Source: Halarcobacter sp.
GTDB lineage: Bacteria > Campylobacterota > Campylobacteria > Campylobacterales > Arcobacteraceae
Direction: 5' to 3'
Assembly: GCA_963676565.1 (NCBI GenBank)
Contig: OY781089.1
Location: 2,592,001-2,656,000, forward strand
Length of the DNA: 64,000 nucleotides
The notes under the pieces: model-generated
What the model saw: only the letters and a program-made list of their open reading frames with translations
Database searches by the model: none
Told to the model about the DNA's origin: nothing
Made by a program: the position numbers and the translations under genes
Part shown: positions 8,958 through 46,410 of the stretch, one piece after another
How the letters are laid out: each line of letters starts with the position of its first letter
Numbering within the stretch: position 1 is the first letter of the stretch

Positions 8958-10273
8958 GTAAAATAGTTGAAGTAAAATTATGGGGTACAACTATTGGATA
9001 TCTTGGTTACCCAAAAGATTCAAATATAGCGCAATTTGAGTATGACAAAAACTTTATGAAATCTAATATTTCACCCTCACCTTTACTGATGAATTATCCA
9101 CCTGACAAGTTTTATTTTGAAGATATTAGTTTTAGAACTTTTAAAGGAGTAGCTGGAGTTTTTGCGGATTCTTTGCCAGATAAATATGGGAATCAACTAA
9201 TCGATCAATTTATGGCAGAGAAAAAAATCCCCAAAGAAGATATAACAACTCTAGATAGATTATTATATGTGGGGAAAAGAAGTATTGGAGCTTTGGAATA
9301 TCATCCTTGTGAATTTGAAGATGATTTTGAAAAAAGTGCAAAAGCTTTAGATATATCTTTATTGTCTCAACTAGCTGAATTAGTAATTACAAAAAAAGAC
9401 AAACTAAATGATAAATTAAAAGATTCAAAAACAAAAAAAGAGGCACTTGATTTGATTAGAGTTGGTTCTAGCGCAGGAGGAGCAAGGGCAAAAGCACTTA
9501 TTGCAAAAGATGAAGATAAAAAGAATATATATATTGATGGAACAAACTTATATGAAGGGAACTATTCTTATTGGCTTTTAAAATTTGATTCATCTGCAAA
9601 TCAAGATAGGGATTCAAAAGACCCAAAAGGGATGACTAGAGTTGAATATATCTATTCCTTGTTTGCTAAAGAGTGTGAGATAGATATTCCTGAAACCTCA
9701 TATTTAGAAATAGATGATGATTTTCATTTTATGATAAAAAGATTTGATAGAGTTGTAGAAAATAAAAAAACCTCAAAACTACACTATATATCTTGGGCTG
9801 GACTATCTCATTATGATAGAGATACAACAGGGGCATACTCATACGAACAACTAATCTTAAACTTACGTCAACTAAACTTTGGACAAGAAGAGATTACAGA
9901 AATTTTTAAAAGAGCTGTTTTTAATATAGTAGGAAGAAACCAAGATGACCACACAAAAAACTTTGGATTTTTGATGAATAAAAAAGGAGAATGGAGTTTA
10001 TCCCCTGCTTTTGATATGACCTACTCTTTTGACCCATCTGGGACTTGGACGAAAGTTCATCAAATAAGATTAAATAAAAAGCAAGATAATTTTACAAAAG
10101 AAGATATTATTGCATTTGGGAAATATTGTAATCTAACTCAAATACAATCAACAAAAATCCTTGAAAAAACTATTGGGATATTTAAAAAATTTGAAAAACT
10201 TGCAGATGAATATAAGGTACCAATAAAAGTGAAAGATATCATCTCTAAAAATTTGAGAAGAGATTTAATTTAG
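8954..10273 (+). CDS. hipA: HipA family Ser/Thr kinase toxin
   Basis: DSLPDKYG N-terminal domain, SAGGARAKA, KRFDR, NQDDHTKNFGF, LSPAFD. Confidence 0.9.
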   Translation: MSKIVEVKLWGTTIGYLGYPKDSNIAQFEYDKNFMKSNISPSPLLMNYPPDKFYFEDISFRTFKGVAGVFADSLPDKYGNQLIDQFMAEKKIPKEDITTLDRLLYVGKRSIGALEYHPCEFEDDFEKSAKALDISLLSQLAELVITKKDKLNDKLKDSKTKKEALDLIRVGSSAGGARAKALIAKDEDKKNIYIDGTNLYEGNYSYWLLKFDSSANQDRDSKDPKGMTRVEYIYSLFAKECEIDIPETSYLEIDDDFHFMIKRFDRVVENKKTSKLHYISWAGLSHYDRDTTGAYSYEQLILNLRQLNFGQEEITEIFKRAVFNIVGRNQDDHTKNFGFLMNKKGEWSLSPAFDMTYSFDPSGTWTKVHQIRLNKKQDNFTKEDIIAFGKYCNLTQIQSTKILEKTIGIFKKFEKLADEYKVPIKVKDIISKNLRRDLI

Positions 10274-10870
10274 TACCTTATTTATATTAGATAAAGAAGC
10301 AACCTCTCCTGGCATTAGACTATCAATATGAATCTCACCAATTCTAATTCGAACAAGTCTTAATGTAGGGAATCCAACAGCAGCAGTCATTTTTCGAATC
10401 TGACGTTTCTTTCCTTCACAAATCGTAATAGATATCCAACTAGTAGGTCCATGTTTTGGATGACGAATATTTTTTCCTCGAGGTGGTAAATCTGGCTCAC
10501 CATCAATTGCAAATGCTTTACAAGGAAGAGTTAAATATTTGCTCCCACTTACAGTAATTTCAACACCCTTTTGGAGATTAGAAATTGCATCCTCTGTAAT
10601 CACACCATCAACTTGCACATAGTACTCTTTTTCTATACTTTTATTTCTAACTTTATGACTTGTCATACCATCAGTTGTAAGTAATAATAAACCTTCTGAG
10701 TCATGGTCTAACCTTCCAATAGCCATAGTATCCTCAGGAAAATCATAAAAGTCACCTAATAAGCTTTTATTTTTCATTTTTTCTTGCTTGAATTGACTTA
10801 AACACCCATATGGTTTAAATATTTTAAAGTGCTGGTGAGTTTGTTCTGATGTAGAGTTTTCATTTGGCAT
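10265..10870 (-). CDS. rluE: RsuA/RluE family pseudouridine synthase
   Basis: KPYGCLSQF, GRLDHDSEGLLLLT, EGKKRQIRKMTAAVGFPTLRLVR. Confidence 0.8.
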   Translation of the reverse strand: MPNENSTSEQTHQHFKIFKPYGCLSQFKQEKMKNKSLLGDFYDFPEDTMAIGRLDHDSEGLLLLTTDGMTSHKVRNKSIEKEYYVQVDGVITEDAISNLQKGVEITVSGSKYLTLPCKAFAIDGEPDLPPRGKNIRHPKHGPTSWISITICEGKKRQIRKMTAAVGFPTLRLVRIRIGEIHIDSLMPGEVASLSNINKVLN

Positions 10871-10926
10871 TAAAGATATCCTTTAGATTATGTGGAATTG
10901 TAACTTTTATTTTATAAAGTTGCGAT

Positions 10927-12207
10927 TTAATCTTTAATATCTTTTTTGTATACCTTTCCATTGAATTTTAATATAGATTTTTGGTTCGTTGTTATTACTT
11001 TAGCATCACATTCCCCATTCTTATTAACTTCATTTTTGGTTTCTGTAACCTTGCTTTTTATCAAAATATTAAAAAAGCCATTTGATTTTTGGTTTGACAT
11101 AATTAAAGTGTTTTTAGTATCTGTAAATTCACCAGAACAGTTACCGTTCCATTCACCAATGGCGTTCATCACGGAGTATTTATCAAGAATTTTTTTTAGT
11201 CTGTTGCCTGATTTGATAAAAAGAGACAAGGTTTCGCTTGTATAAGGATTAACTCTTGACATTCCCTGATAGCGTACTTTAACACCAAAAGCTCGAATCT
11301 TTTTATTAATAAAGTATCGCGCTGTATCTATACTGATTTTTCTAAGCATTATGGCATCTGAAACCCATTGGTTCGTTTGACTGCTTTCAAAGAATTTTTG
11401 TATTATTTTTCCAGTACGATTATCGGCAATAACAATATGACTGTTGAGGGCAAAATATTGTATTCCCTCTTCTACAATCTCTGGTATAACTATAATCACT
11501 TCATTTGGAGTTTGAGGGTTGGCTTTTGATACAATCAAATCTGTTTTTACTAATAACGGATCAAGACCTAATTCTTTTAAAACAGATAAAACTAATGTGA
11601 AATTTGATAAGGTGTCATTTAGTCTCTTTGAATTTGTCCTGTCAATCGTACCATCAAAATTAATAACAAATTCCTGTACTTCTATTTTTTTGACCAAATC
11701 CCAAGAAGTATGGTGGCTTGTGATAGCACGTTCACTTATTCTTGATTTTATTTGAGTCAGACCTTCAGCTATCTCGTCATAGACAATCCGCTGATAATCA
11801 ATAACATTGCCTTTTAAATCATAGTTTATCAAGGTAGATTCCATTTCATATTCACCCAATTTATAGGTAACCACCACCGTATAGAAGTTTTGAGACAAAG
11901 TTACTTTGTAAGAACTCACTGCTTTATACTTAGATTTTTCTTGATAGAAATCAGGATATATAGTTTCAATCTTCAAAGCGTGACTATCAATGGATTTAAA
12001 GTCAGCAACGTCAATAAAATCATCAAAGTTTGTGGTATCAACTACTGGCAGTTTTCTCTCTTTTAGAGTATTTATCACGTCTTTAAAATCAATAGATTTC
12101 TCTACTTGTTCTATTGCACCTTCCACTTGCTTTTCATCTTGTTTTTCTTGTCCAAAAGAATAAGAGAACAACAGCGATATAAGTATAAAAATTTGCATAT
12201 GTTTCAT
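10927..12207 (-). CDS. Secreted hypothetical protein
   Basis: 426-aa ORF with N-terminal signal peptide. Confidence 0.65.
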   Translation of the reverse strand: MKHMQIFILISLLFSYSFGQEKQDEKQVEGAIEQVEKSIDFKDVINTLKERKLPVVDTTNFDDFIDVADFKSIDSHALKIETIYPDFYQEKSKYKAVSSYKVTLSQNFYTVVVTYKLGEYEMESTLINYDLKGNVIDYQRIVYDEIAEGLTQIKSRISERAITSHHTSWDLVKKIEVQEFVINFDGTIDRTNSKRLNDTLSNFTLVLSVLKELGLDPLLVKTDLIVSKANPQTPNEVIIVIPEIVEEGIQYFALNSHIVIADNRTGKIIQKFFESSQTNQWVSDAIMLRKISIDTARYFINKKIRAFGVKVRYQGMSRVNPYTSETLSLFIKSGNRLKKILDKYSVMNAIGEWNGNCSGEFTDTKNTLIMSNQKSNGFFNILIKSKVTETKNEVNKNGECDAKVITTNQKSILKFNGKVYKKDIKD

Positions 12208-38867: not shown

Positions 38868-39443
38868 ATGAAAATTTTTATTACTATTATTTTACCATTA
38901 TTCTTTTTTACAGCCTGTTCAAAAGTAAACGTTGTCCTACTTCCAGAAGATGGAGATAAAATTGGGAAAATAGAGATCCAAAATGAAGACAAAAAATTTG
39001 TTATAGATAAACCATTTGAGCAAGTAAATGCTATTGATGGAGACTCATCAATTCTAACCAAAGAAGAGGTTCAAGAAAAGTTTAAAGACTCAATTGCAGC
39101 ACTACCTAAAAAACCAAAAAGTTATCTAATCTATTTTGAATGGGATTCAACAAAAGTTGTTCCAAAATCAAAAAAAGAAATTAAGAAAATCATCGAAAAT
39201 ATAAAAAAAGAAAACACAAACTATATACATATTATTGGTCATACTGATAGAGCAGGAGATAACCAATACAATAAAAAATTATCACTAAAAAGAGCAAACT
39301 ATATTAAAAAAATACTTATTAAAAACAAAATACCAAAAGAGATAATTGAAATAGACTATTATGGAGAATCTGCACCTTTAGTCAAAACACGAGATGACGT
39401 GCCAAGAAAAATAAATAGAAGAGTAGAAGTAACTGTAAAATAA
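38868..39443 (+). CDS. OmpA-family lipoprotein
   Basis: Lipobox FTAC, IGHTDRAG, NKKLSLKRA, NRRVEV. Confidence 0.88.
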   Translation: MKIFITIILPLFFFTACSKVNVVLLPEDGDKIGKIEIQNEDKKFVIDKPFEQVNAIDGDSSILTKEEVQEKFKDSIAALPKKPKSYLIYFEWDSTKVVPKSKKEIKKIIENIKKENTNYIHIIGHTDRAGDNQYNKKLSLKRANYIKKILIKNKIPKEIIEIDYYGESAPLVKTRDDVPRKINRRVEVTVK

Positions 39444-39555
39444 TATTAAAGACTAAATAAGTTTCTCTTGTCCAATTCTATATAGGGGAAGAAACACTTT
39501 AAATAAGTACTTGTAGAAGTTATATAATTAAAAGTGTCCTATTATGTGTACATAT

Positions 39556-40215
39556 TTACTTAAAGTTCCTAATTACACGATATGTAATACTACTATTATT
39601 TGCATTTATAACTTCAATCAAAGCACCTTTATAACCAATAGTTTTTGACTCTGATAAATCATATTCTACATCATTATTAAAAGCTGGTCTTGCTCTATTA
39701 TTAGAAAACTCTCTATAACTTATATTAATTTTATTACCTACCTTTCCACTATATATTAATGTTTGTTGAAAAGATTTTCCTCTTTCTGAAACTTTTTCTA
39801 CTAATTCCCAATCACCATCATAACAAGCAGTACCACCAAATACTGTTACAACACATAATTGCTTTTTGTCAGTTTTCTGCAAGGCTAAAGATTCAAAAGG
39901 GTCAAATATAGCTCCACGAACAACTCCTGTAGGGTTGAAAAATAAATATTTATCATCATAACCAATTGGTGGATAATATTTAGGTGGAATATCATATGCA
40001 ACTCCATCAATTAATTGGTTTACTCTTAAGCCTTTTTCTTGATAAACAACTCCTTTTTCCAACAAATGGTCACCTATAAATGCAGTAACTTCATTATTAA
40101 GTTTAGGATAGTTTACATTTTTTACAACAGATGCACCTCCATTATACTTTGTACTTGCACAACCACTAAATAAAATAACAAATCCTATTGACATTAATAT
40201 CCATATTCTTTTCAT
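39556..40215 (-). CDS. Lipoprotein (element cargo)
   Basis: Lipobox FSGC. Confidence 0.75.
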   Translation of the reverse strand: MKRIWILMSIGFVILFSGCASTKYNGGASVVKNVNYPKLNNEVTAFIGDHLLEKGVVYQEKGLRVNQLIDGVAYDIPPKYYPPIGYDDKYLFFNPTGVVRGAIFDPFESLALQKTDKKQLCVVTVFGGTACYDGDWELVEKVSERGKSFQQTLIYSGKVGNKINISYREFSNNRARPAFNNDVEYDLSESKTIGYKGALIEVINANNSSITYRVIRNFK

Positions 40216-40261
40216 AGTAATCCCCTTATAATATAAAAGTTTATCAAAAAAAAATGAAATG

Positions 40262-40516
40262 TTAATTAATATACTTATAAAAGTTATTATTCTTTATTAT
40301 TGAATTTAGCTCTTTTTGTTTTCTCAATAAAATATCTAACTCTTTCATTAAACCATGCAAAACTAAATCATTCTTAAGTGCATTCATTTTTGACTTTTCT
40401 TTACCCTCTTTTGTTTTAGCTCCAGTAGATTTTAACCACGGTTTATGTTTATGTATTTCTTCTCTTGCTTTCTGTTTTGCTTCATCATTCCAAGCTAACT
40501 TATGATATTTACTCAT
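40262..40516 (-). CDS. Small basic protein with PW-x-x-STG-x-KT-x-EGK motif
   Basis: KPWLKSTGAKTKEGKEKSKMNALK, resembling the HGGxSTG-related motif. Confidence 0.65.
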   Translation of the reverse strand: MSKYHKLAWNDEAKQKAREEIHKHKPWLKSTGAKTKEGKEKSKMNALKNDLVLHGLMKELDILLRKQKELNSIIKNNNFYKYIN

Positions 40517-41327
40517 TAAGTGCCTTTTCTTTTAAAGTTGTGACTTCTACCTCATCATTTGTTTTATCCTCTATAAGCTTAGTTTCATTTTGTAGTTCGT
40601 TTTCTTTTTCTATTTTTTTTGGTGAATTTTGATGAAGATGATTATGTTGTGAAGCTTCTTTTATAAATGTTGTTCTTTTAGGATTAACTATCTCATTAAT
40701 TGCCATAATGCTCTTTCTTGTCTCTTGCATAACTTTTATCTGCATATTAGATAACCTTTCAAAATTAACTATTTGTTTTCCTGCTTCACCAGTTATATTA
40801 TTAGTAATGGTGCTATTAAAAACTTGAAGTTGCAACACATTAGTTGTAAGTATAGTAATTAAATGAGAAGTATCACCCTCTTTTACTTTCTTTACCATTT
40901 CCAAAATATCATCACCTAAAATTTGTTGTGAAATTGGTATATCTTTGTTTGGATTTTGATTTAATATATTAATCATTCCACTATATAAAGGATTACTCAT
41001 TTGTTTTGTTGCGTGTTTCTCTGCATCATTCTTTTTTTGTTTAGCTTCTTGAATATCCTCTTTATACTGTTCTTTCCATTGGATACATTGACTTAAACTA
41101 ATTTCATAGCTTTCTATGATTTCCTTATCACTAATACCACTTGAAGATAAATAAATATAGTTTTTTATCAAACCTCTTTCATAAGCTCTTAAAATTTGTT
41201 CATCTTTTTTTAATCTTTTTGAGATACTTAATTCTTCAAATAGTTCATCTAAGCTATACTGGTCTTGTGCATAATCTTCTATATCTTGTAACATTTCATC
41301 TGTGATTTTATATCTTCCCATTATCAT
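40509..41327 (-). CDS. Hypothetical protein (element)
   Basis: 272-aa ORF overlapping the next gene. Confidence 0.7.
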   Translation of the reverse strand: MIMGRYKITDEMLQDIEDYAQDQYSLDELFEELSISKRLKKDEQILRAYERGLIKNYIYLSSSGISDKEIIESYEISLSQCIQWKEQYKEDIQEAKQKKNDAEKHATKQMSNPLYSGMINILNQNPNKDIPISQQILGDDILEMVKKVKEGDTSHLITILTTNVLQLQVFNSTITNNITGEAGKQIVNFERLSNMQIKVMQETRKSIMAINEIVNPKRTTFIKEASQHNHLHQNSPKKIEKENELQNETKLIEDKTNDEVEVTTLKEKALNE

Positions 41328-41390
41328 TTCCTTTTTTAAAAAGTGTAAAATTAGCTATTGCATATATTAAACCAATACTTTTTATTTTTT

Positions 41391-42290
41391 TCATACTCTA
41401 TACCCTCCTATATATCGTCGTTCTGTTAAAAGTGTAAAGTTAGCTATTACATTATGGTACTTATACTCATAAGCTAAAAGATGGCTATACAAATATACAT
41501 ATGAAACAAAAAAAAGAGGAAGAATAGAAAAAATGCTTTCTTTTATTAGCTTTGTTACTGTTGGTCTTGATAAATTTAGTTCCTCTGCTATTGCCTTTAT
41601 ATTTGGTTTTCCATTTAGCTTTATATAACTACCTTCATTTATCAACTTTAATATCATTCTTGTATTTTGTTGTTTCTGCTTCTTCATTTGCTTCCCTCTC
41701 ATTTCTCCACCTTTCTTATATGCCTTTTTTAACTCAATAGGTGTTAGTTGTTGTTTTAAATTGTTTTTGTTCTTTAAAATAAAGCTATATACTCTATTTG
41801 ACATATTTAATAACTCTTTATAGCTATATGGTTTATTTAATTTGTCATTTATCTTATGTCCTGCATATATAATCATTTCAAGTGATAATATTTTGTGGTA
41901 GTACAAATTTTTTGCATAGATACATAGTCTTTGATACATATCTTTTTTATTTTGCGCAAATAGTATTATTGGATATTTTGTATTTATTGATTTATAGTGA
42001 TTTGATAAGTCATCTAAAGAGTATTTTTTGTATTCAACCTCATCAATATCTGTACTTTCTACAAATTCAAAATTTACTTTTATATGATGTTTCATTGAGT
42101 GCTTTATATTTGCTAACCATTTAAGCTGTTTAGGTGAACTTATAGAGTGTTTTAGTTCATAAGTAATACAAACATAGCCTTGATGATTAAACTTCGTTAG
42201 AGTCTTTATATGAGTTGGTATTAATAAAGAGTATGCAACCTTTTCATAATCATTAAAAAGAAATTGTAACGATATTTTATTTAGTTGCAT
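41391..42290 (-). CDS. Putative replication protein with C-terminal HTH
   Basis: Basic KAYKKGGEMRGK helix followed by HTH IKAIAEELNLSRPTVTKL; position in the element. Confidence 0.5.
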   Translation of the reverse strand: MQLNKISLQFLFNDYEKVAYSLLIPTHIKTLTKFNHQGYVCITYELKHSISSPKQLKWLANIKHSMKHHIKVNFEFVESTDIDEVEYKKYSLDDLSNHYKSINTKYPIILFAQNKKDMYQRLCIYAKNLYYHKILSLEMIIYAGHKINDKLNKPYSYKELLNMSNRVYSFILKNKNNLKQQLTPIELKKAYKKGGEMRGKQMKKQKQQNTRMILKLINEGSYIKLNGKPNIKAIAEELNLSRPTVTKLIKESIFSILPLFFVSYVYLYSHLLAYEYKYHNVIANFTLLTERRYIGGYRV

Positions 42291-42304
42291 ACTACTATTT
42301 AAAC

Positions 42305-42589
42305 CTATTTTCTAACTAACTTTTTCTTAGGTTTATTAACTTCTCTAAAATCCAAGTGAGGATTTTCTTCAAGTAGTTTATTTTTCATTCTACTAACTGC
42401 AACACTATTACTTATAGTCTCAAAAGTTAAATCTTCAACTTTAGTTTTTGGATTAAACTCCATTAAATACTGTTTTATAATTGCAGGATTTCCAATATCT
42501 CCACCAAATAAAAAAGGGTCATCTTCTATCTTTGAAAATGTCCACTTTTTAATATCATTGTCAATTGCATTTACATAATTCTTTTTCAT
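42305..42589 (-). CDS. Hypothetical protein (element)
   Basis: 94-aa ORF with AAGGA RBS. Confidence 0.65.
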   Translation of the reverse strand: MKKNYVNAIDNDIKKWTFSKIEDDPFLFGGDIGNPAIIKQYLMEFNPKTKVEDLTFETISNSVAVSRMKNKLLEENPHLDFREVNKPKKKLVRK

Positions 42590-42772
42590 AATCTTCCTTT
42601 TTTAGGCATTACTTTATTGACCCATTATTTCAGAGCAACCTTTTTTTACTTCACTATTTAAAACTTTGTTGAATAAAACAAATTATGATAGAATTCTATT
42701 GCGATATAGCCTTATCAATTTGATTATTCATTTTGATAGGGTTTTAACTACTATTCATTTTATTACCTCCTT

Positions 42773-42985
42773 TTATAGATTTACTTTTACTGTTCTATCT
42801 TCTAAGTATCTGATTAATTCAGTTCTTGAAACATGAAGTTTGTTTCCAATTTTTACTGCTTCAAGTTTTCCATTGTAGATTAGTTTTTTTGCTGTTGGGG
42901 TTTTTATAATATGGTAGTCTTGTAGTTGTGCTAAATTAAATAACACACCTTTTGGGATTATGTTGTTATAGTCTGTTATTGCCAT
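42773..42985 (-). CDS. Excisionase-like small HTH protein
   Basis: 70 aa, TAKKLIYNGKLEAVKIGNKLHVSRTELIRYLE (HTH_17/Xis-like); AGGAG RBS. Confidence 0.75.
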   Translation of the reverse strand: MAITDYNNIIPKGVLFNLAQLQDYHIIKTPTAKKLIYNGKLEAVKIGNKLHVSRTELIRYLEDRTVKVNL

Positions 42986-43115
42986 TATAATTACTCCTAT
43001 ATGGTTATAAGTGTAAGTATAATATATATTTAGAAGTTTGGTATATTACATTTTTATAAAAATATTGATCTTTTGTATTGTTATATATTATGTATTAAGA
43101 AGTAAAAATATATAC

Positions 43116-44225
43116 CTAAAAAAAACTCTGAAGTTTTGATTGGAAGTCTTTAAATATTTTAGGTTTTAGTTCTAAAGGAGTTAGTGTTTCAAAATATTTA
43201 TTCATTGTAGCTTTAGAGACATCAAAATCCGTAGCTGATTTAATATATGAAGTTATTTTACTTGTTTCAATATTAAGTACAATTGATAGAGGTTTAAAAA
43301 TCATAAGTTTATGACAAGTTTTTGGAATAGAACAAATTTCTATTTTTTTTGATAATAATTTTATATGTCTTTCATTACCTTCATATCTTTTTAATACTTC
43401 TAAATCTTTTTTATACTCATTAATCTCTGTTCTACTTATATTACTTAGAAAAAGATAATGAGTGTAGCCATCAATCAAAGCATTTGTAAATTCAAAATAA
43501 ATATCCTTATTCTCACCTTCTGGCTTACATATTTTACATTTATATAAAAAACTCATATAATGGTTATTGCTTTTAAGTTGATATTGTCTCTTTTTGCTAT
43601 TGTCAAAAATCATATGTGTTCTATATTTCTCTGCTTCTAAGAAACTTACAACATCGTCTGAATTACTAATTTTACTTACTTCTCTTATTATAAGTTCATA
43701 ACTATTTTCAAGAATTCTTTGATTATCTTTTTGACTATTAACTAATATATTAGAATTAACCTCATGATATATTTCATGCCATAAGTTTATCTCAGCAAAT
43801 GAATGACTATCTAAATTAACAAAAAGTGTACTATAGTCTGTTAATGTATATTTATTCAATGGTATCTCTTTAATATTATCCTCATAGTCATCATATTTAT
43901 CAAAATCTATACTATCACTAAGTACATACTCCTCTTTTAATCTATCAAAAAAATCATCATTTATACAAAATTCAATTCCTGTTGTATCTAAAATATCAAC
44001 ACTATAATCGGAAGAACGACCATACCTTATAAATTCAATTACAGGCTCTATCATTTCAAGTAAATGTTCTTTATACTCATAATTAGTATGATTTACTATA
44101 GTTTGTACAAAATGTTTTTCAAATTTTTTTATTCGAATATCATCGAATATATAGCTTGATACTTCTTCATCAGTGTCAAAATCAATTTCAGTACCATAAA
44201 AAAAATCATCTATATAAAAAGTCAT
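43116..44225 (-). CDS. Hypothetical protein with acidic N-terminus (element)
   Basis: 369-aa ORF directly downstream of the integrase. Confidence 0.65.
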   Translation of the reverse strand: MTFYIDDFFYGTEIDFDTDEEVSSYIFDDIRIKKFEKHFVQTIVNHTNYEYKEHLLEMIEPVIEFIRYGRSSDYSVDILDTTGIEFCINDDFFDRLKEEYVLSDSIDFDKYDDYEDNIKEIPLNKYTLTDYSTLFVNLDSHSFAEINLWHEIYHEVNSNILVNSQKDNQRILENSYELIIREVSKISNSDDVVSFLEAEKYRTHMIFDNSKKRQYQLKSNNHYMSFLYKCKICKPEGENKDIYFEFTNALIDGYTHYLFLSNISRTEINEYKKDLEVLKRYEGNERHIKLLSKKIEICSIPKTCHKLMIFKPLSIVLNIETSKITSYIKSATDFDVSKATMNKYFETLTPLELKPKIFKDFQSKLQSFF

Positions 44226-44234
44226 TCAATATCC

Positions 44235-45476
44235 TTATCTCATTAAACCATTAAAGGCATTAATTGCCCTACTTGCTTGTTCTTTACTTGTTTTAGCGTA
44301 CCTTTGTTCTGTTATAGTGATACTACTATGTCCTAACATTCTACTTATATCTTGTATAGGCACTCCATTTTGCACTAATGTAGTTCCTAACATATGTCTT
44401 ATATCATGTAATCTTAATTTAGGTAAACCTAAAGCCTTTAATATATTTTGAAAATGTACTCTTGGTGTTTCTCTTGTATATGTAAATATCTTGGCTTCAC
44501 TTTTAGAATATAAATCAATATTTCTCAATCTTGATTGACTCTTTAAAGCTTCTAAAATATATTCATCAATTTCAAAATCAAGCTCTTTTTTTCCCTTTGT
44601 ATTTGTAGAGACTATTTTAAAAGAATTTGACTCAAAATTTAAATCACAAAATCTTAAATTTAGTATTTCATTTATTCTTCTTCCAGTCAAAGAAAAAGCA
44701 AATATATTTTTGATTTCTTCATATTGATAAAATACTTCATCACCTATATCAATTCGTGAATATTCTCTTAAAACTTTTATTATCTTCTTTGTATCATCTA
44801 AAGATAAAGTATATTCAACCTTGTTATCAACTTCGGGTAATTCTAAATCATCAAAATCAAGCGATATTTCTTTTTTATATGTTTTAAAAAAAGCCCTTAA
44901 TGTCCTTGCATATAAGGCTACTGTTGCAGGTGCTTTTTTAGAATCTAATAATCTATGAATAATCTTTTGAATATCTTTTATTGTAATAGCTGAAAAATTT
45001 TTATCATGTAATTCTCTTGAGTGAGTTCTTAGTGTAGTTTCATAGTTTTGTAAAGTTGATTTTCTTGCAGATACTTCTTTGTCTTTTAAAAAGTCATCAA
45101 CTTTATCTAAAAATGTTTCTTTTTCTTTTATATCTATTTTATCTATTTTTTTCTTTTTTCGTAGACTTTCACCTGCTTTTAGTTTTTCTTTTATATCAAG
45201 TCTAATAGAGTCTACAATATCAAGTAAGTCTTTGAAGGATTTAACAAAAAGTAGTTCTTTATTTGTCTTTGTTTCATGATAGTTAAAAATGAGATTCTTT
45301 TTACCTCTTTTTCCTTCTATCTTTACTCTAAGTTGTACTTTGATTTCTTTCTTCTTTTTGAGTAATTCATTACCTTGTTTAACTGTTGTTATATCATCTT
45401 TAAAAGTATCATCAAACTCTAAAAACAATCCTACACAATTTCTATTTGTAATATTAATTAATCTAAATTCACTCAT
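44235..45476 (-). CDS. Tyrosine recombinase/integrase
   Basis: Catalytic set TGRRINE (R), KGKK (K), HDIRH, LGHSS, RYAK (Y). Confidence 0.93.
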   Translation of the reverse strand: MSEFRLINITNRNCVGLFLEFDDTFKDDITTVKQGNELLKKKKEIKVQLRVKIEGKRGKKNLIFNYHETKTNKELLFVKSFKDLLDIVDSIRLDIKEKLKAGESLRKKKKIDKIDIKEKETFLDKVDDFLKDKEVSARKSTLQNYETTLRTHSRELHDKNFSAITIKDIQKIIHRLLDSKKAPATVALYARTLRAFFKTYKKEISLDFDDLELPEVDNKVEYTLSLDDTKKIIKVLREYSRIDIGDEVFYQYEEIKNIFAFSLTGRRINEILNLRFCDLNFESNSFKIVSTNTKGKKELDFEIDEYILEALKSQSRLRNIDLYSKSEAKIFTYTRETPRVHFQNILKALGLPKLRLHDIRHMLGTTLVQNGVPIQDISRMLGHSSITITEQRYAKTSKEQASRAINAFNGLMR

Positions 45477-45627
45477 TCTAATATATCCTTAGATAAAAAA
45501 TGTCCTTTAAAGTACCCTTTTTAGTGTCCTAATATTTGATTTATCTATGAATAATCATATCTATTTGTATATATAGTTTAGATTAAAACCACTAATTAAA
45601 GGTACATATAGAAGTATTAGTATATAT

Positions 45628-46410
45628 TTAGATTATCTTTTCCTGACCAATTCTATATAAAGCAAAATCATATTTTATAGGATCTTCTTTATCAAAATGT
45701 TTTAATTTTTCAGTTATATCAATTGCACTTTTTAAATCATAAGTTTTTCTATCTAAAAGCCCTATTCTTTTTGAAACATTAAAAGTATGAGTATCGAGGG
45801 GCAAGATTAAATCTTTTTTATCAATTCCATGCCAAAGACCTAAATCTAGATTATCTTCTCTAATCATCCATCTAAGATACATAAACCATCTTTTATAAGG
45901 TGCATTTCCTATGTGCTTAATCTTTCCATCTTTATCCCTTTTAAATGGGCTTGAAACTAAAAATTTAAATCCTTGTGATTCATAATTTGCTAGCTGATGT
46001 ATTTTTAATATAAGAGCATCTAAAGCTTCTAGTATTGAGTTTGTATCTATATAAGTTTTTTTAAAAATCTCATTTAAACTGTATTCTTGTTTCATATTTC
46101 TAAAGGTTTGAAATATTTTTATAACATCCTCACTATTTTGAAATCTATAATAATGATTAGACAACTCTTTTTTTATAGTATCTTCATTTTTATCAAGTAA
46201 ATCAAAATCTAATGAATCTAAAAACTTAACTATTAAACTAGCTTTTCCATATCCAAACAAAGCACAAAGTAAAATTGCATATTCATCTTTATATCTACTT
46301 GCAACTAACAAAGGATCGGGTTTTTCATAGCTTAGTTCACAGGAAGAGTCTCTACATAAAACCTCTTGGTCTAAAAGTTGTTTTAATTCTAAATCTTTTT
46401 TAGTCATCAT
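45628..46410 (-). CDS. TIGR02757 / DUF2400 family protein
   Basis: KRWFMYLRWMIR, DLGLW, PLDTH, DPIKYDFAL. Confidence 0.85.
   Translation of the reverse strand: MMTKKDLELKQLLDQEVLCRDSSCELSYEKPDPLLVASRYKDEYAILLCALFGYGKASLIVKFLDSLDFDLLDKNEDTIKKELSNHYYRFQNSEDVIKIFQTFRNMKQEYSLNEIFKKTYIDTNSILEALDALILKIHQLANYESQGFKFLVSSPFKRDKDGKIKHIGNAPYKRWFMYLRWMIREDNLDLGLWHGIDKKDLILPLDTHTFNVSKRIGLLDRKTYDLKSAIDITEKLKHFDKEDPIKYDFALYRIGQEKII

Follow-up and report, generated by a model that had tools for sequence, protein, structure and literature searches.

A small integrase-bearing element in the last codons of a TIGR02757/DUF2400 gene of Halarcobacter appears to re-supply the gene end that it displaces

We analysed a 64,000-nucleotide (nt) stretch of the genome of Halarcobacter sp. 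(GenBank assembly GCA_963676565.1, contig OY781089.1, positions 2,592,001 to 2,656,000 of the forward strand), here called the window, in which a 6.2-kb integrase-bearing element adjoins the 3′ end of a TIGR02757/DUF2400 gene. This gene, the putative integration target (45628..46410, minus strand), is a full-length and apparently chimeric open reading frame (ORF) of 260 amino acids (aa) that matches the TIGR02757 profile over positions 2-229 of 229 (E 8.8e-71) and also matches PF09674 (DUF2400). Its 3′ end, read on the minus strand from 45657 to 45628, is TAT AGA ATT GGT CAG GAA AAG ATA ATC TAA (YRIGQEKII*). A second, orphan tail lies on the same strand from 39482 to 39453 and reads TAT AGA ATT GGA CAA GAG AAA CTT ATT TAG (YRIGQEKLI*); reading the window revealed no ORF upstream of it. 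The longest run identical in both tails is 13 bp (plus strand, CCAATTCTATATA), and its two copies form the core. The copy at the gene-distal junction (39472..39484) is assigned to repeat family D5, and the copy at the gene-side junction (45647..45659) lies within Leu-Tyr-Arg-Ile-Gly codons. The two cores bound the integrated element proper (39485..45646, minus strand; 6162 bp), which comprises eight minus-strand ORFs and includes, on the element side of the gene-side core, what we read as a replacement tail (45628..45646, minus strand), consisting of the third base of the Gly codon followed by QEKII and the stop. On the other side, the remainder of the orphan tail (39453..39471, minus strand; ..G QEKLI*) is followed by a gene for an OmpA-family lipoprotein (38868..39443, plus strand; PF00691, E 2.3e-20) that belongs to the host flank, with 9 nt between the stop of the orphan tail and the stop of that gene.

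Downstream of the 13-bp core, all seven codons differ between the two tails, the stop included. There are eight base differences in the pair: seven are at third codon positions, and the one at a first position causes a conservative Ile/Leu exchange that is the sole change in the peptide. This excess of third-position differences has a hypergeometric P of 6.9e-5. A degenerate pattern for YRIGQEK, allowing at most one mismatch, had exactly two matches in the 3.34-Mb genome, whereas a reversed control pattern had none, so that chance similarity of the tails is excluded. Direct reading of the window bore out the initial annotation with respect to both tail sequences and their placement, and comparison of the repeat and of the pair bore out its further claims that only 13 bp of core are identical and that every codon past the core has been recoded with almost no change to the peptide.

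A sister species, G014, has the corresponding site in an unoccupied state. Window positions 38868-39484 align to positions 9886-10493 of the G014 locus (L045) with 93.2% identity, and window positions 45647-46410 align to positions 10483-11243 with 82.3% identity. The two alignments overlap in L045 by 11 nt, corresponding to the core, and the element is unmatched there. The OmpA-family gene, whose product is 94% identical, and the target gene are convergent in G014, with 2 nt between their stop codons. The junction of 39484 to 45660 in a relative, on which the initial annotation had staked its reading beforehand, is therefore found in G014. That annotation had also predicted that an empty site would end in YRIGQEKLI next to the OmpA gene; the gene order stood, but the G014 gene ends in YRIGQEKLV, this being another species. 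The native G014 tail, GGC CAA GAG AAA CTT GTT TAA, differs at 3 of 21 bases from the window orphan, which forms part of the left flank aligning to the empty site, and at 8 of 21 from the gene-attached tail. The closeness of the G014 tail to the orphan indicates that the orphan is the native gene end and that the gene-attached end is foreign. We rejected chance duplication, or an ordinary duplication of a gene fragment, as the source of the two tails, since the insert whose ends coincide exactly with the repeats bears an integrase gene and is missing from the empty site.

Two further observations concern the flanks. Identity to G014 is unequal: the flank with the OmpA-family gene has 93% and that with the target gene 82% (94-97% and 79-81%, respectively, for the proteins). 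Additionally, G010, which has the most similar target gene (90%), has neither an orphan tail nor an OmpA-family gene; ORFs of 397, 161 and 286 aa (L046, 2820-5800) separate its target gene from the conserved flank. These three extra ORFs show that the region downstream of the target gene is variable even without an integrase.

Next to the gene-side junction lies a gene for an uninterrupted 413-aa tyrosine integrase (44235..45476, minus strand) with a SAM-like N-terminal domain. It matches PF00589 over profile positions 33-171 of 172 (E 5e-22; 78.9 bits, cutoff 27.1) and phrog_1 (E 4.3e-45). In an alignment of ten integrases, the motifs HDIRH, GH and RY are conserved in the eight sequences that span the C-terminal part, and TGRR is conserved in all sequences that cover its columns. 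We take these motifs to be the catalytic residues of tyrosine recombinases (Arg, His-x-x-Arg, His/Trp and Tyr). The element also encodes a 70-aa excisionase-like helix-turn-helix (HTH) protein (42773..42985, minus strand; PF12728 HTH_17, E 6.3e-7; TIGR01764, E 3.2e-5, below the cutoff), which is, apart from the integrase, the sole protein of the window element that recurs in sister elements. The presence of an intact PF00589 integrase at the junction, together with an HTH_17/excisionase-like gene, supports the initial view that the interval 39485-45646 is integrative. A search of a phage collection gave no close relative of the integrase, the best matches having 25-29% identity over partial length; they include integrases of streptococcal satellites, at only 29% identity. 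No relatives were confirmed in viral contigs.

We found integrase homologues (E ≤ 1e-40) in 7 of 25 genomes of the genus, and all seven have both a gene-attached and an orphan tail, in keeping with the long-term use of this non-tRNA target proposed in the initial annotation. Across 184 genomes of the family, 15 genomes in eight genera have two matches to the tail pattern, located either 4.7-34 kb apart on one strand or on two contigs; the control pattern gave no match in any genome. Of these 15 genomes, 10 have integrases that fall in a single clade, with pairwise identities of 47-92%. In a 401-genome sample of the order, only four have an integrase homologue at E ≤ 1e-50. The integrase-bearing elements have two arrangements. 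In type A (n = 7, including the window element), the integrase gene follows the replacement tail. In type B (n = 3), it is at the opposite end, by the orphan, and reads inward, and the element-side arm at the core is unrelated (..AATATTA). The type-B elements (G012, L043 1233-17554; G017, L044 2306-11098; G089, L050 1622-15792) supply a tail of QEKLY or QEKLI, and those of G012 and G017 share DNA past the supplied tail.

Not all of these loci have a functional-looking integrase gene. Two of the relatives, G003 and G017, have an in-frame stop in the integrase, and a related integrase is absent from three fully fetched two-tail islands of 4.7-9 kb (G093, L051; G098, L052; G172, L055), which look like stranded remnants at a hotspot. 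Going only by order and size, we interpret the ORFs of the G172 island as a type I restriction-modification set, and a gene in the G098 island is presumably a serine recombinase, judging from its N-terminal sequence. The two-tail loci of G013 and G178 are interrupted by contig ends. Searches tolerating mismatches in 12 two-tail genomes and in the unoccupied G010 recovered only orphans that match the coding pattern perfectly. We also looked for a third, decayed tail near the loci of G125, G086, G089, G172 and G093 and found none; matches with two mismatches are at other places in these genomes, and at this level the control pattern gives matches too.

Among the 15 two-tail pairs, the shortest identical run is the 8-bp sequence TATAGAAT, indicating that the 13-bp core is peculiar to the window pair. 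This family-wide minimum matches in size the overlap region of a tyrosine recombinase, and we therefore place the putative strand exchange there. Sequences flanking the core include candidates for additional integrase-binding sites. On one arm, all seven type-A elements have the motif AGT[GA][TC][AC]C at −57 to −72 from the core; on the other, six of the seven have it at +118 to +144, and G003 has it at +128 and +164. The background frequency of the motif is 0.07 per 200 nt. In the window element, one candidate arm-type site, AGTGTCC (39533..39539, plus strand), lies some 50 nt from the core on the element side. Two more, AGTACCC and AGTGTCC, lie in the interval from the replacement tail to the start of the integrase gene (45511-45517 and 45523-45529, plus strand; +121 and +133), and a third, weaker copy is at 45498-45507. 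Repeated arm-type sites on both arms are the attP layout of lambda-type heterobivalent integrases. Note that the window candidates are oriented opposite to those of G003, and that a window-wide search for AAGTGTCCTA with up to two mismatches gave no enrichment (39 matches, 62 expected); the arm motif is informative only by position-specific comparison across elements.

These data are very probably explained by a lambda-type integrase element that recombined in the last codons of the TIGR02757/DUF2400 gene and whose attP re-supplied the gene end. Under this model, a small 6.2-kb element with a lambda-type tyrosine integrase would recombine inside the last codons of the target gene, with the crossover falling within the Tyr-Arg-Ile codons (TATAGAAT). 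Given a crossover there, the present gene 3′ of it, i.e. the third base of Gly, Gln-Glu-Lys-Ile-Ile and the stop, would derive from the attP of the element, and the native end (Gln-Glu-Lys-Leu-Ile and stop) would have been displaced by 6.2 kb to its position beside the OmpA-family gene. The host gene would stay full length because attP holds a synonymous re-spelling of the conserved end, and this tail would be kept because hosts with a broken gene are selected against. The tail DNA may also serve as a core-type half-site of the integrase, the AGTGTCC-like repeats on both arms are putative binding sites of the integrase N-terminal domain, and the element may still be able to excise, with the HTH_17 protein as candidate directionality factor.

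Alternatively, the island could be a fixed, immobile remnant, the two tails being fossils of one old insertion that are no longer maintained. The integrase-less islands of G093, G098 and G172 and the interrupted integrases of G003 and G017 show that such states occur in the family. However, the window integrase has an unbroken reading frame and the conserved catalytic motifs, and the excisionase-like gene, both cores and arm-type candidates on both arms are all retained. We consider it unlikely that the window element is a remnant of this kind.

Several comparisons bear on whether the tail is under selection at the protein level. In the seven genus genomes found via the integrase, all 20 differences between paired tails within YRIGQEK are at third codon positions; orphan tails in these genomes were sought with mismatches allowed, yet they matched the coding pattern perfectly. 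All 15 pairs together have 0, 0 and 39 differences at codon positions 1, 2 and 3, a count that is partly circular, since the search pattern demands the peptide, and to which we give little weight. We give more weight to a comparison between the element-borne tails themselves. Within three integrase clades (seven non-independent pairs), the Gly-Gln-Glu-Lys codons have 12 synonymous and no non-synonymous differences, corresponding to at least six separate changes. In the same pairs, the two codons past Lys have 3 synonymous and 8 non-synonymous differences, and 7-25 of the 40 nt past the tail stop differ. These counts are as expected if purifying selection acts on the peptide during its carriage by the element, and the 12 synonymous differences against none that are non-synonymous favour the original suggestion that the tail is kept by selection at the protein level; they do not fit a constraint acting purely on the DNA.

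Two alternative explanations for the similarity of the tails bear on these data. The first is that DNA-level constraint alone keeps them alike, the Gly-Gln-Glu-Lys DNA being a core-type integrase half-site that attP and attB alike require and the conserved peptide a by-product. In its favour, comparing the element-side arm at the core (e.g. TATTTCCTTTCCTA) with the reverse-complemented tail gives 7-11 matching positions of 14 in type-A elements, as expected of inverted half-sites, and 4-8 of 14 in the other eight pairs. This resemblance suggests that the tail DNA probably doubles as one of two inverted core-type integrase half-sites. However, a binding-site constraint would not restrict variation to third positions, where all YRIGQEK differences are located, and type-B elements retain the peptide despite an unrelated other arm (4-6 of 14). 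We regard it as highly improbable that DNA-level constraint acts by itself; coding and DNA-level constraints probably act together.

The second alternative is that the tail is a recent, passive capture from the gene of another host, for example by imprecise excision, in which case the differences between tails would merely reflect divergence of host genes. Consistent with this, every codon of the element tails is also found in native tails of other species, and capture of a host gene end is most likely the ultimate origin of the tail. On the other hand, integrases that are only 47-56% identical to one another all carry the tail, and the tails track the integrase clades, with at least six synonymous and no non-synonymous changes, whereas flanking non-coding DNA differs at 7-25 of 40 positions. 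Moreover, exactly two residues past Lys are supplied by 10 of 10 integrase-bearing elements, whereas native tails have 2-10. A recent, passive capture is very unlikely to account for these features.

The target gene and its C-terminus are well conserved in the host lineage. The gene is present in 40 of 41 related genomes, and YR[IL]GQEK adjoins the stop in 28 of the 30 target loci retrieved, the script having returned no call for the other two (L027 and L030). Residues Y252, R253, G255, Q256 and E257 are invariant across 16 orthologues with identities down to 53%, and G255, Q256 and E257 are preserved by the supplied tail. The predicted structure (predicted local distance difference test score, 93) has an HhH-GPD-like fold in which the last helix (244-256) contains YRIGQ, such that the invariant tail residues are in, or directly past, this helix. 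The fold assignment is based on VIA-align: the 22 best structural matches (Z 6.7-11.2) all belong to the HhH-GPD superfamily and include endonuclease III, Ogg, MutY, AlkA, MagIII and the DUF2419 queuine-salvage enzyme, with unrelated entries appearing from about Z 3. A search of the protein sequence against solved structures returned nothing significant, and Foldseek gave only weak matches (E > 0.06). The motif PLDTHTFNVSKRIG resembles, in our judgement, the helix-hairpin-helix region of EndoIII. Conservation of YRIGQEK, combined with its synonymous-only divergence, agrees with the earlier proposal that this C-terminus is functionally important.

Several points weigh against the model of a maintained replacement tail, or limit how far it extends. 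The last two supplied residues vary freely (II, KI, MI, KL, IL, LY, LI), indicating that the tail is only partly constrained. The related genomes are not independent of one another, and the third-position counts therefore overstate significance. The pattern that found the 15 loci itself demands YRIGQEK, so that elements with decayed tails would escape; the only ones not subject to this bias are the seven genus genomes identified via the integrase. As for the empty site, it is that of a different species. Lastly, a role of the target C-terminus is suggested by its conservation, and the present-day mobility of the element is putative.

The element has six further ORFs. Nearest to the gene-distal junction is a predicted 219-aa lipoprotein (39556..40215, minus strand), which we class as cargo; it matches phrog_1353, a family of unknown function, end to end (E 1.5e-62) and has no match in Pfam, NCBIfam or PADLOC; the lipoprotein label is our reading of its N-terminal ...LFSGC. 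ORFs of 84 aa (40262..40516) and 94 aa (42305..42589), both on the minus strand, match no family in Pfam, NCBIfam, PHROGs or PADLOC. The 272-aa ORF (40509..41327, minus strand) has a weak N-terminal DNA-binding-like match (NCBIfam PRK00118-type, E 6e-4, far below the cutoff), and the 369-aa ORF beside the integrase gene (43116..44225, minus strand) has no family match in these four collections, with Atlas returning only unnamed clusters at a recognition value below the guide value. The 299-aa protein (41391..42290, minus strand) has a C-terminal winged HTH (HTH_24, E 2.7e-4), and its Atlas neighbours include Replicase PF03090/PriCT_1 clusters. In its structural model, residues 1-100 align to the AEP domain of S-2L PrimPol at Z 7.2. 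For residues 113-239 the match is ColE2 Rep, at Z 7.8 but with a root-mean-square deviation of 12.5, which is poor. All Z values are below 8 and so in the inconclusive range of the tool. Homologues of this protein were seen only on contigs of 1.5-11.5 kb, and it had no match among 72,556 plasmid records. As a lead only, the 299-aa protein may be a replication initiator of the prim-pol type.

Scanning the eight element proteins against PHROGs revealed no virion structural, packaging or lysis genes; the only matches were the integrase, a weak match of the excisionase-like protein, and phrog_1353. A length of 6.2 kb is too short for a tailed phage. No relaxase, coupling protein or type IV secretion component was matched in Pfam or NCBIfam among the eight ORFs at E ≤ 0.01, PADLOC gave no match for the seven non-integrase proteins, and the GC content of the element is not distinguishable from that of its surroundings. 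When compared with satellites resembling phage-inducible chromosomal islands, the integrase, excisionase-like and possible prim-pol genes fit, whereas no gene for packaging or capsid redirection was recognised with PHROGs. Given that no virion, packaging, conjugation or defence gene was recognised, we interpret the window element as a small element of the integrase/excisionase kind that may encode a replication protein of its own.

Other loci of the family and order provide further observations on the clade. The G011 element (L041, 1480-11600) encodes an LmuB/AriA/Ppl-like ATPase and a protein that combines TCAD9 with a receiver domain, and the G005 element (L040, 1-19700) a patatin-like phospholipase, a C5 cytosine methylase, an AAA_5 ATPase and an HATPase_c_3 protein; this cargo is defence-like, and each of the two elements has a second, short ORF of the integrase family. 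In G498, which belongs to another family, a 49%-identical integrase (L064, C10) directly follows an SBP_bac_5 gene (E 4.3e-82) at its 3′ end. The 17 bp at L064 1306-1322 recur identically at L068 1501-1517, 8.0 kb downstream on the same strand, and AGTACAC-type repeats occur on both arms; the peptide encoded past the repeat differs between the two copies. In G498, the integrase clade seems to have taken up another protein-gene end as its target. In G125 (tails at L053, 1577-1606, and L054, 6824-6853), the orphan tail reads QEKMI* followed by ..tcatatccccatata.. and looks like the tail and arm of an element rather than a native end, which suggests that the gene end had been supplied by an earlier element before another one inserted into it. 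A search of the 18 kb beyond this orphan revealed no remnant of an integrase. In G178 (L056, 1501-1553; L057, 1-51), comparison of the two tails over 53 nt shows no difference, and one of them is at a contig start; this may reflect a long repeat or an assembly effect.

Taken together, the observations admit a broader reading that we put forward tentatively, as possible. The Gly-Gln-Glu-Lys DNA would be doubly constrained, by coding for the terminal part of the last helix in an HhH-GPD-fold protein and by serving as a core-type half-site, and a single integrase clade would hold this attB in at least eight genera. The gene end would then be a family-wide landing pad at which islands are exchanged, many of them with defence-like cargo and some stranded without an integrase, and the clade would be able to jump to another protein-gene 3′ end with the same attP arm architecture, such as that of SBP_bac_5 in G498.

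The principle by which this element would preserve its target is already known. In the part of PMC13626634 that treats e14, the icd gene of E. coli K-12 extends into the prophage and a C-terminal pseudogene, icdC, is found at the far end; the ends of icd and icdC differ by synonymous and a few conservative changes. As in that account of e14, the window has a tyrosine-integrase element in the 3′ end of a protein-coding gene with the displaced fragment at the far end. Unlike e14, it has another target gene and another host lineage, and the integrases are unrelated at the level tested; moreover, excision of e14 has been shown experimentally, whereas excision of the window element is a prediction. 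The replaced stretch here is about six codons, while e14 replaces more than 50 icd codons. Phage 21 follows the same principle as e14.

A second precedent is the dusA-specific islands (Farrugia et al. 2015, PMC4482086), which themselves supply the replaced gene end, in that case the 5′ end of dusA. Like the present elements, these islands vary in size and cargo but have integrases of a single family, dedicated to a single protein-coding target in many genera; the differences are that the element here replaces the 3′ rather than the 5′ end, that the integrase family is another one, and that excision from dusA has been shown by polymerase chain reaction. The Discussion of PMC10111431 states a general rule for integrative genetic elements that matches the window case, and relative to the rule as worded in that section there is no difference in principle. 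The integrase resembles heterobivalent integrases of the lambda type in being long (413 aa), in its N-terminal extension and in having arm motifs at fixed distances; the short overlap, the imperfect inverted repeats and the small HTH candidate for a directionality factor are also alike. A literature search for TIGR02757/DUF2400 returned no mention of it as an integration target among the papers searched, although the target catalogue of Mageeney et al. 2020 might list it, and a search for Arcobacter with integrase, attL and attR gave nothing relevant among the top matches listed. We conclude that what is new is the attB in the end of a TIGR02757/DUF2400 gene and the integrase clade that goes with it, and that the case is mechanistically ordinary.

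The understanding of how such elements work is unchanged by these findings. The list of integration sites in protein-coding genes gains a well-defined attB in the final codons of TIGR02757/DUF2400, together with the corresponding integrase clade. The integrase with its core and arm sites is also a candidate tool for site-specific integration. The natural experiment is unusually clear, with 15 two-tail loci in eight genera in addition to empty sites, and the synonymous-only divergence of the tails is direct sequence evidence that the C-terminal YRIGQEK matters to the host. For the family, the site marks a hotspot for variable cargo, including the restriction-modification and defence-like genes of sister elements.

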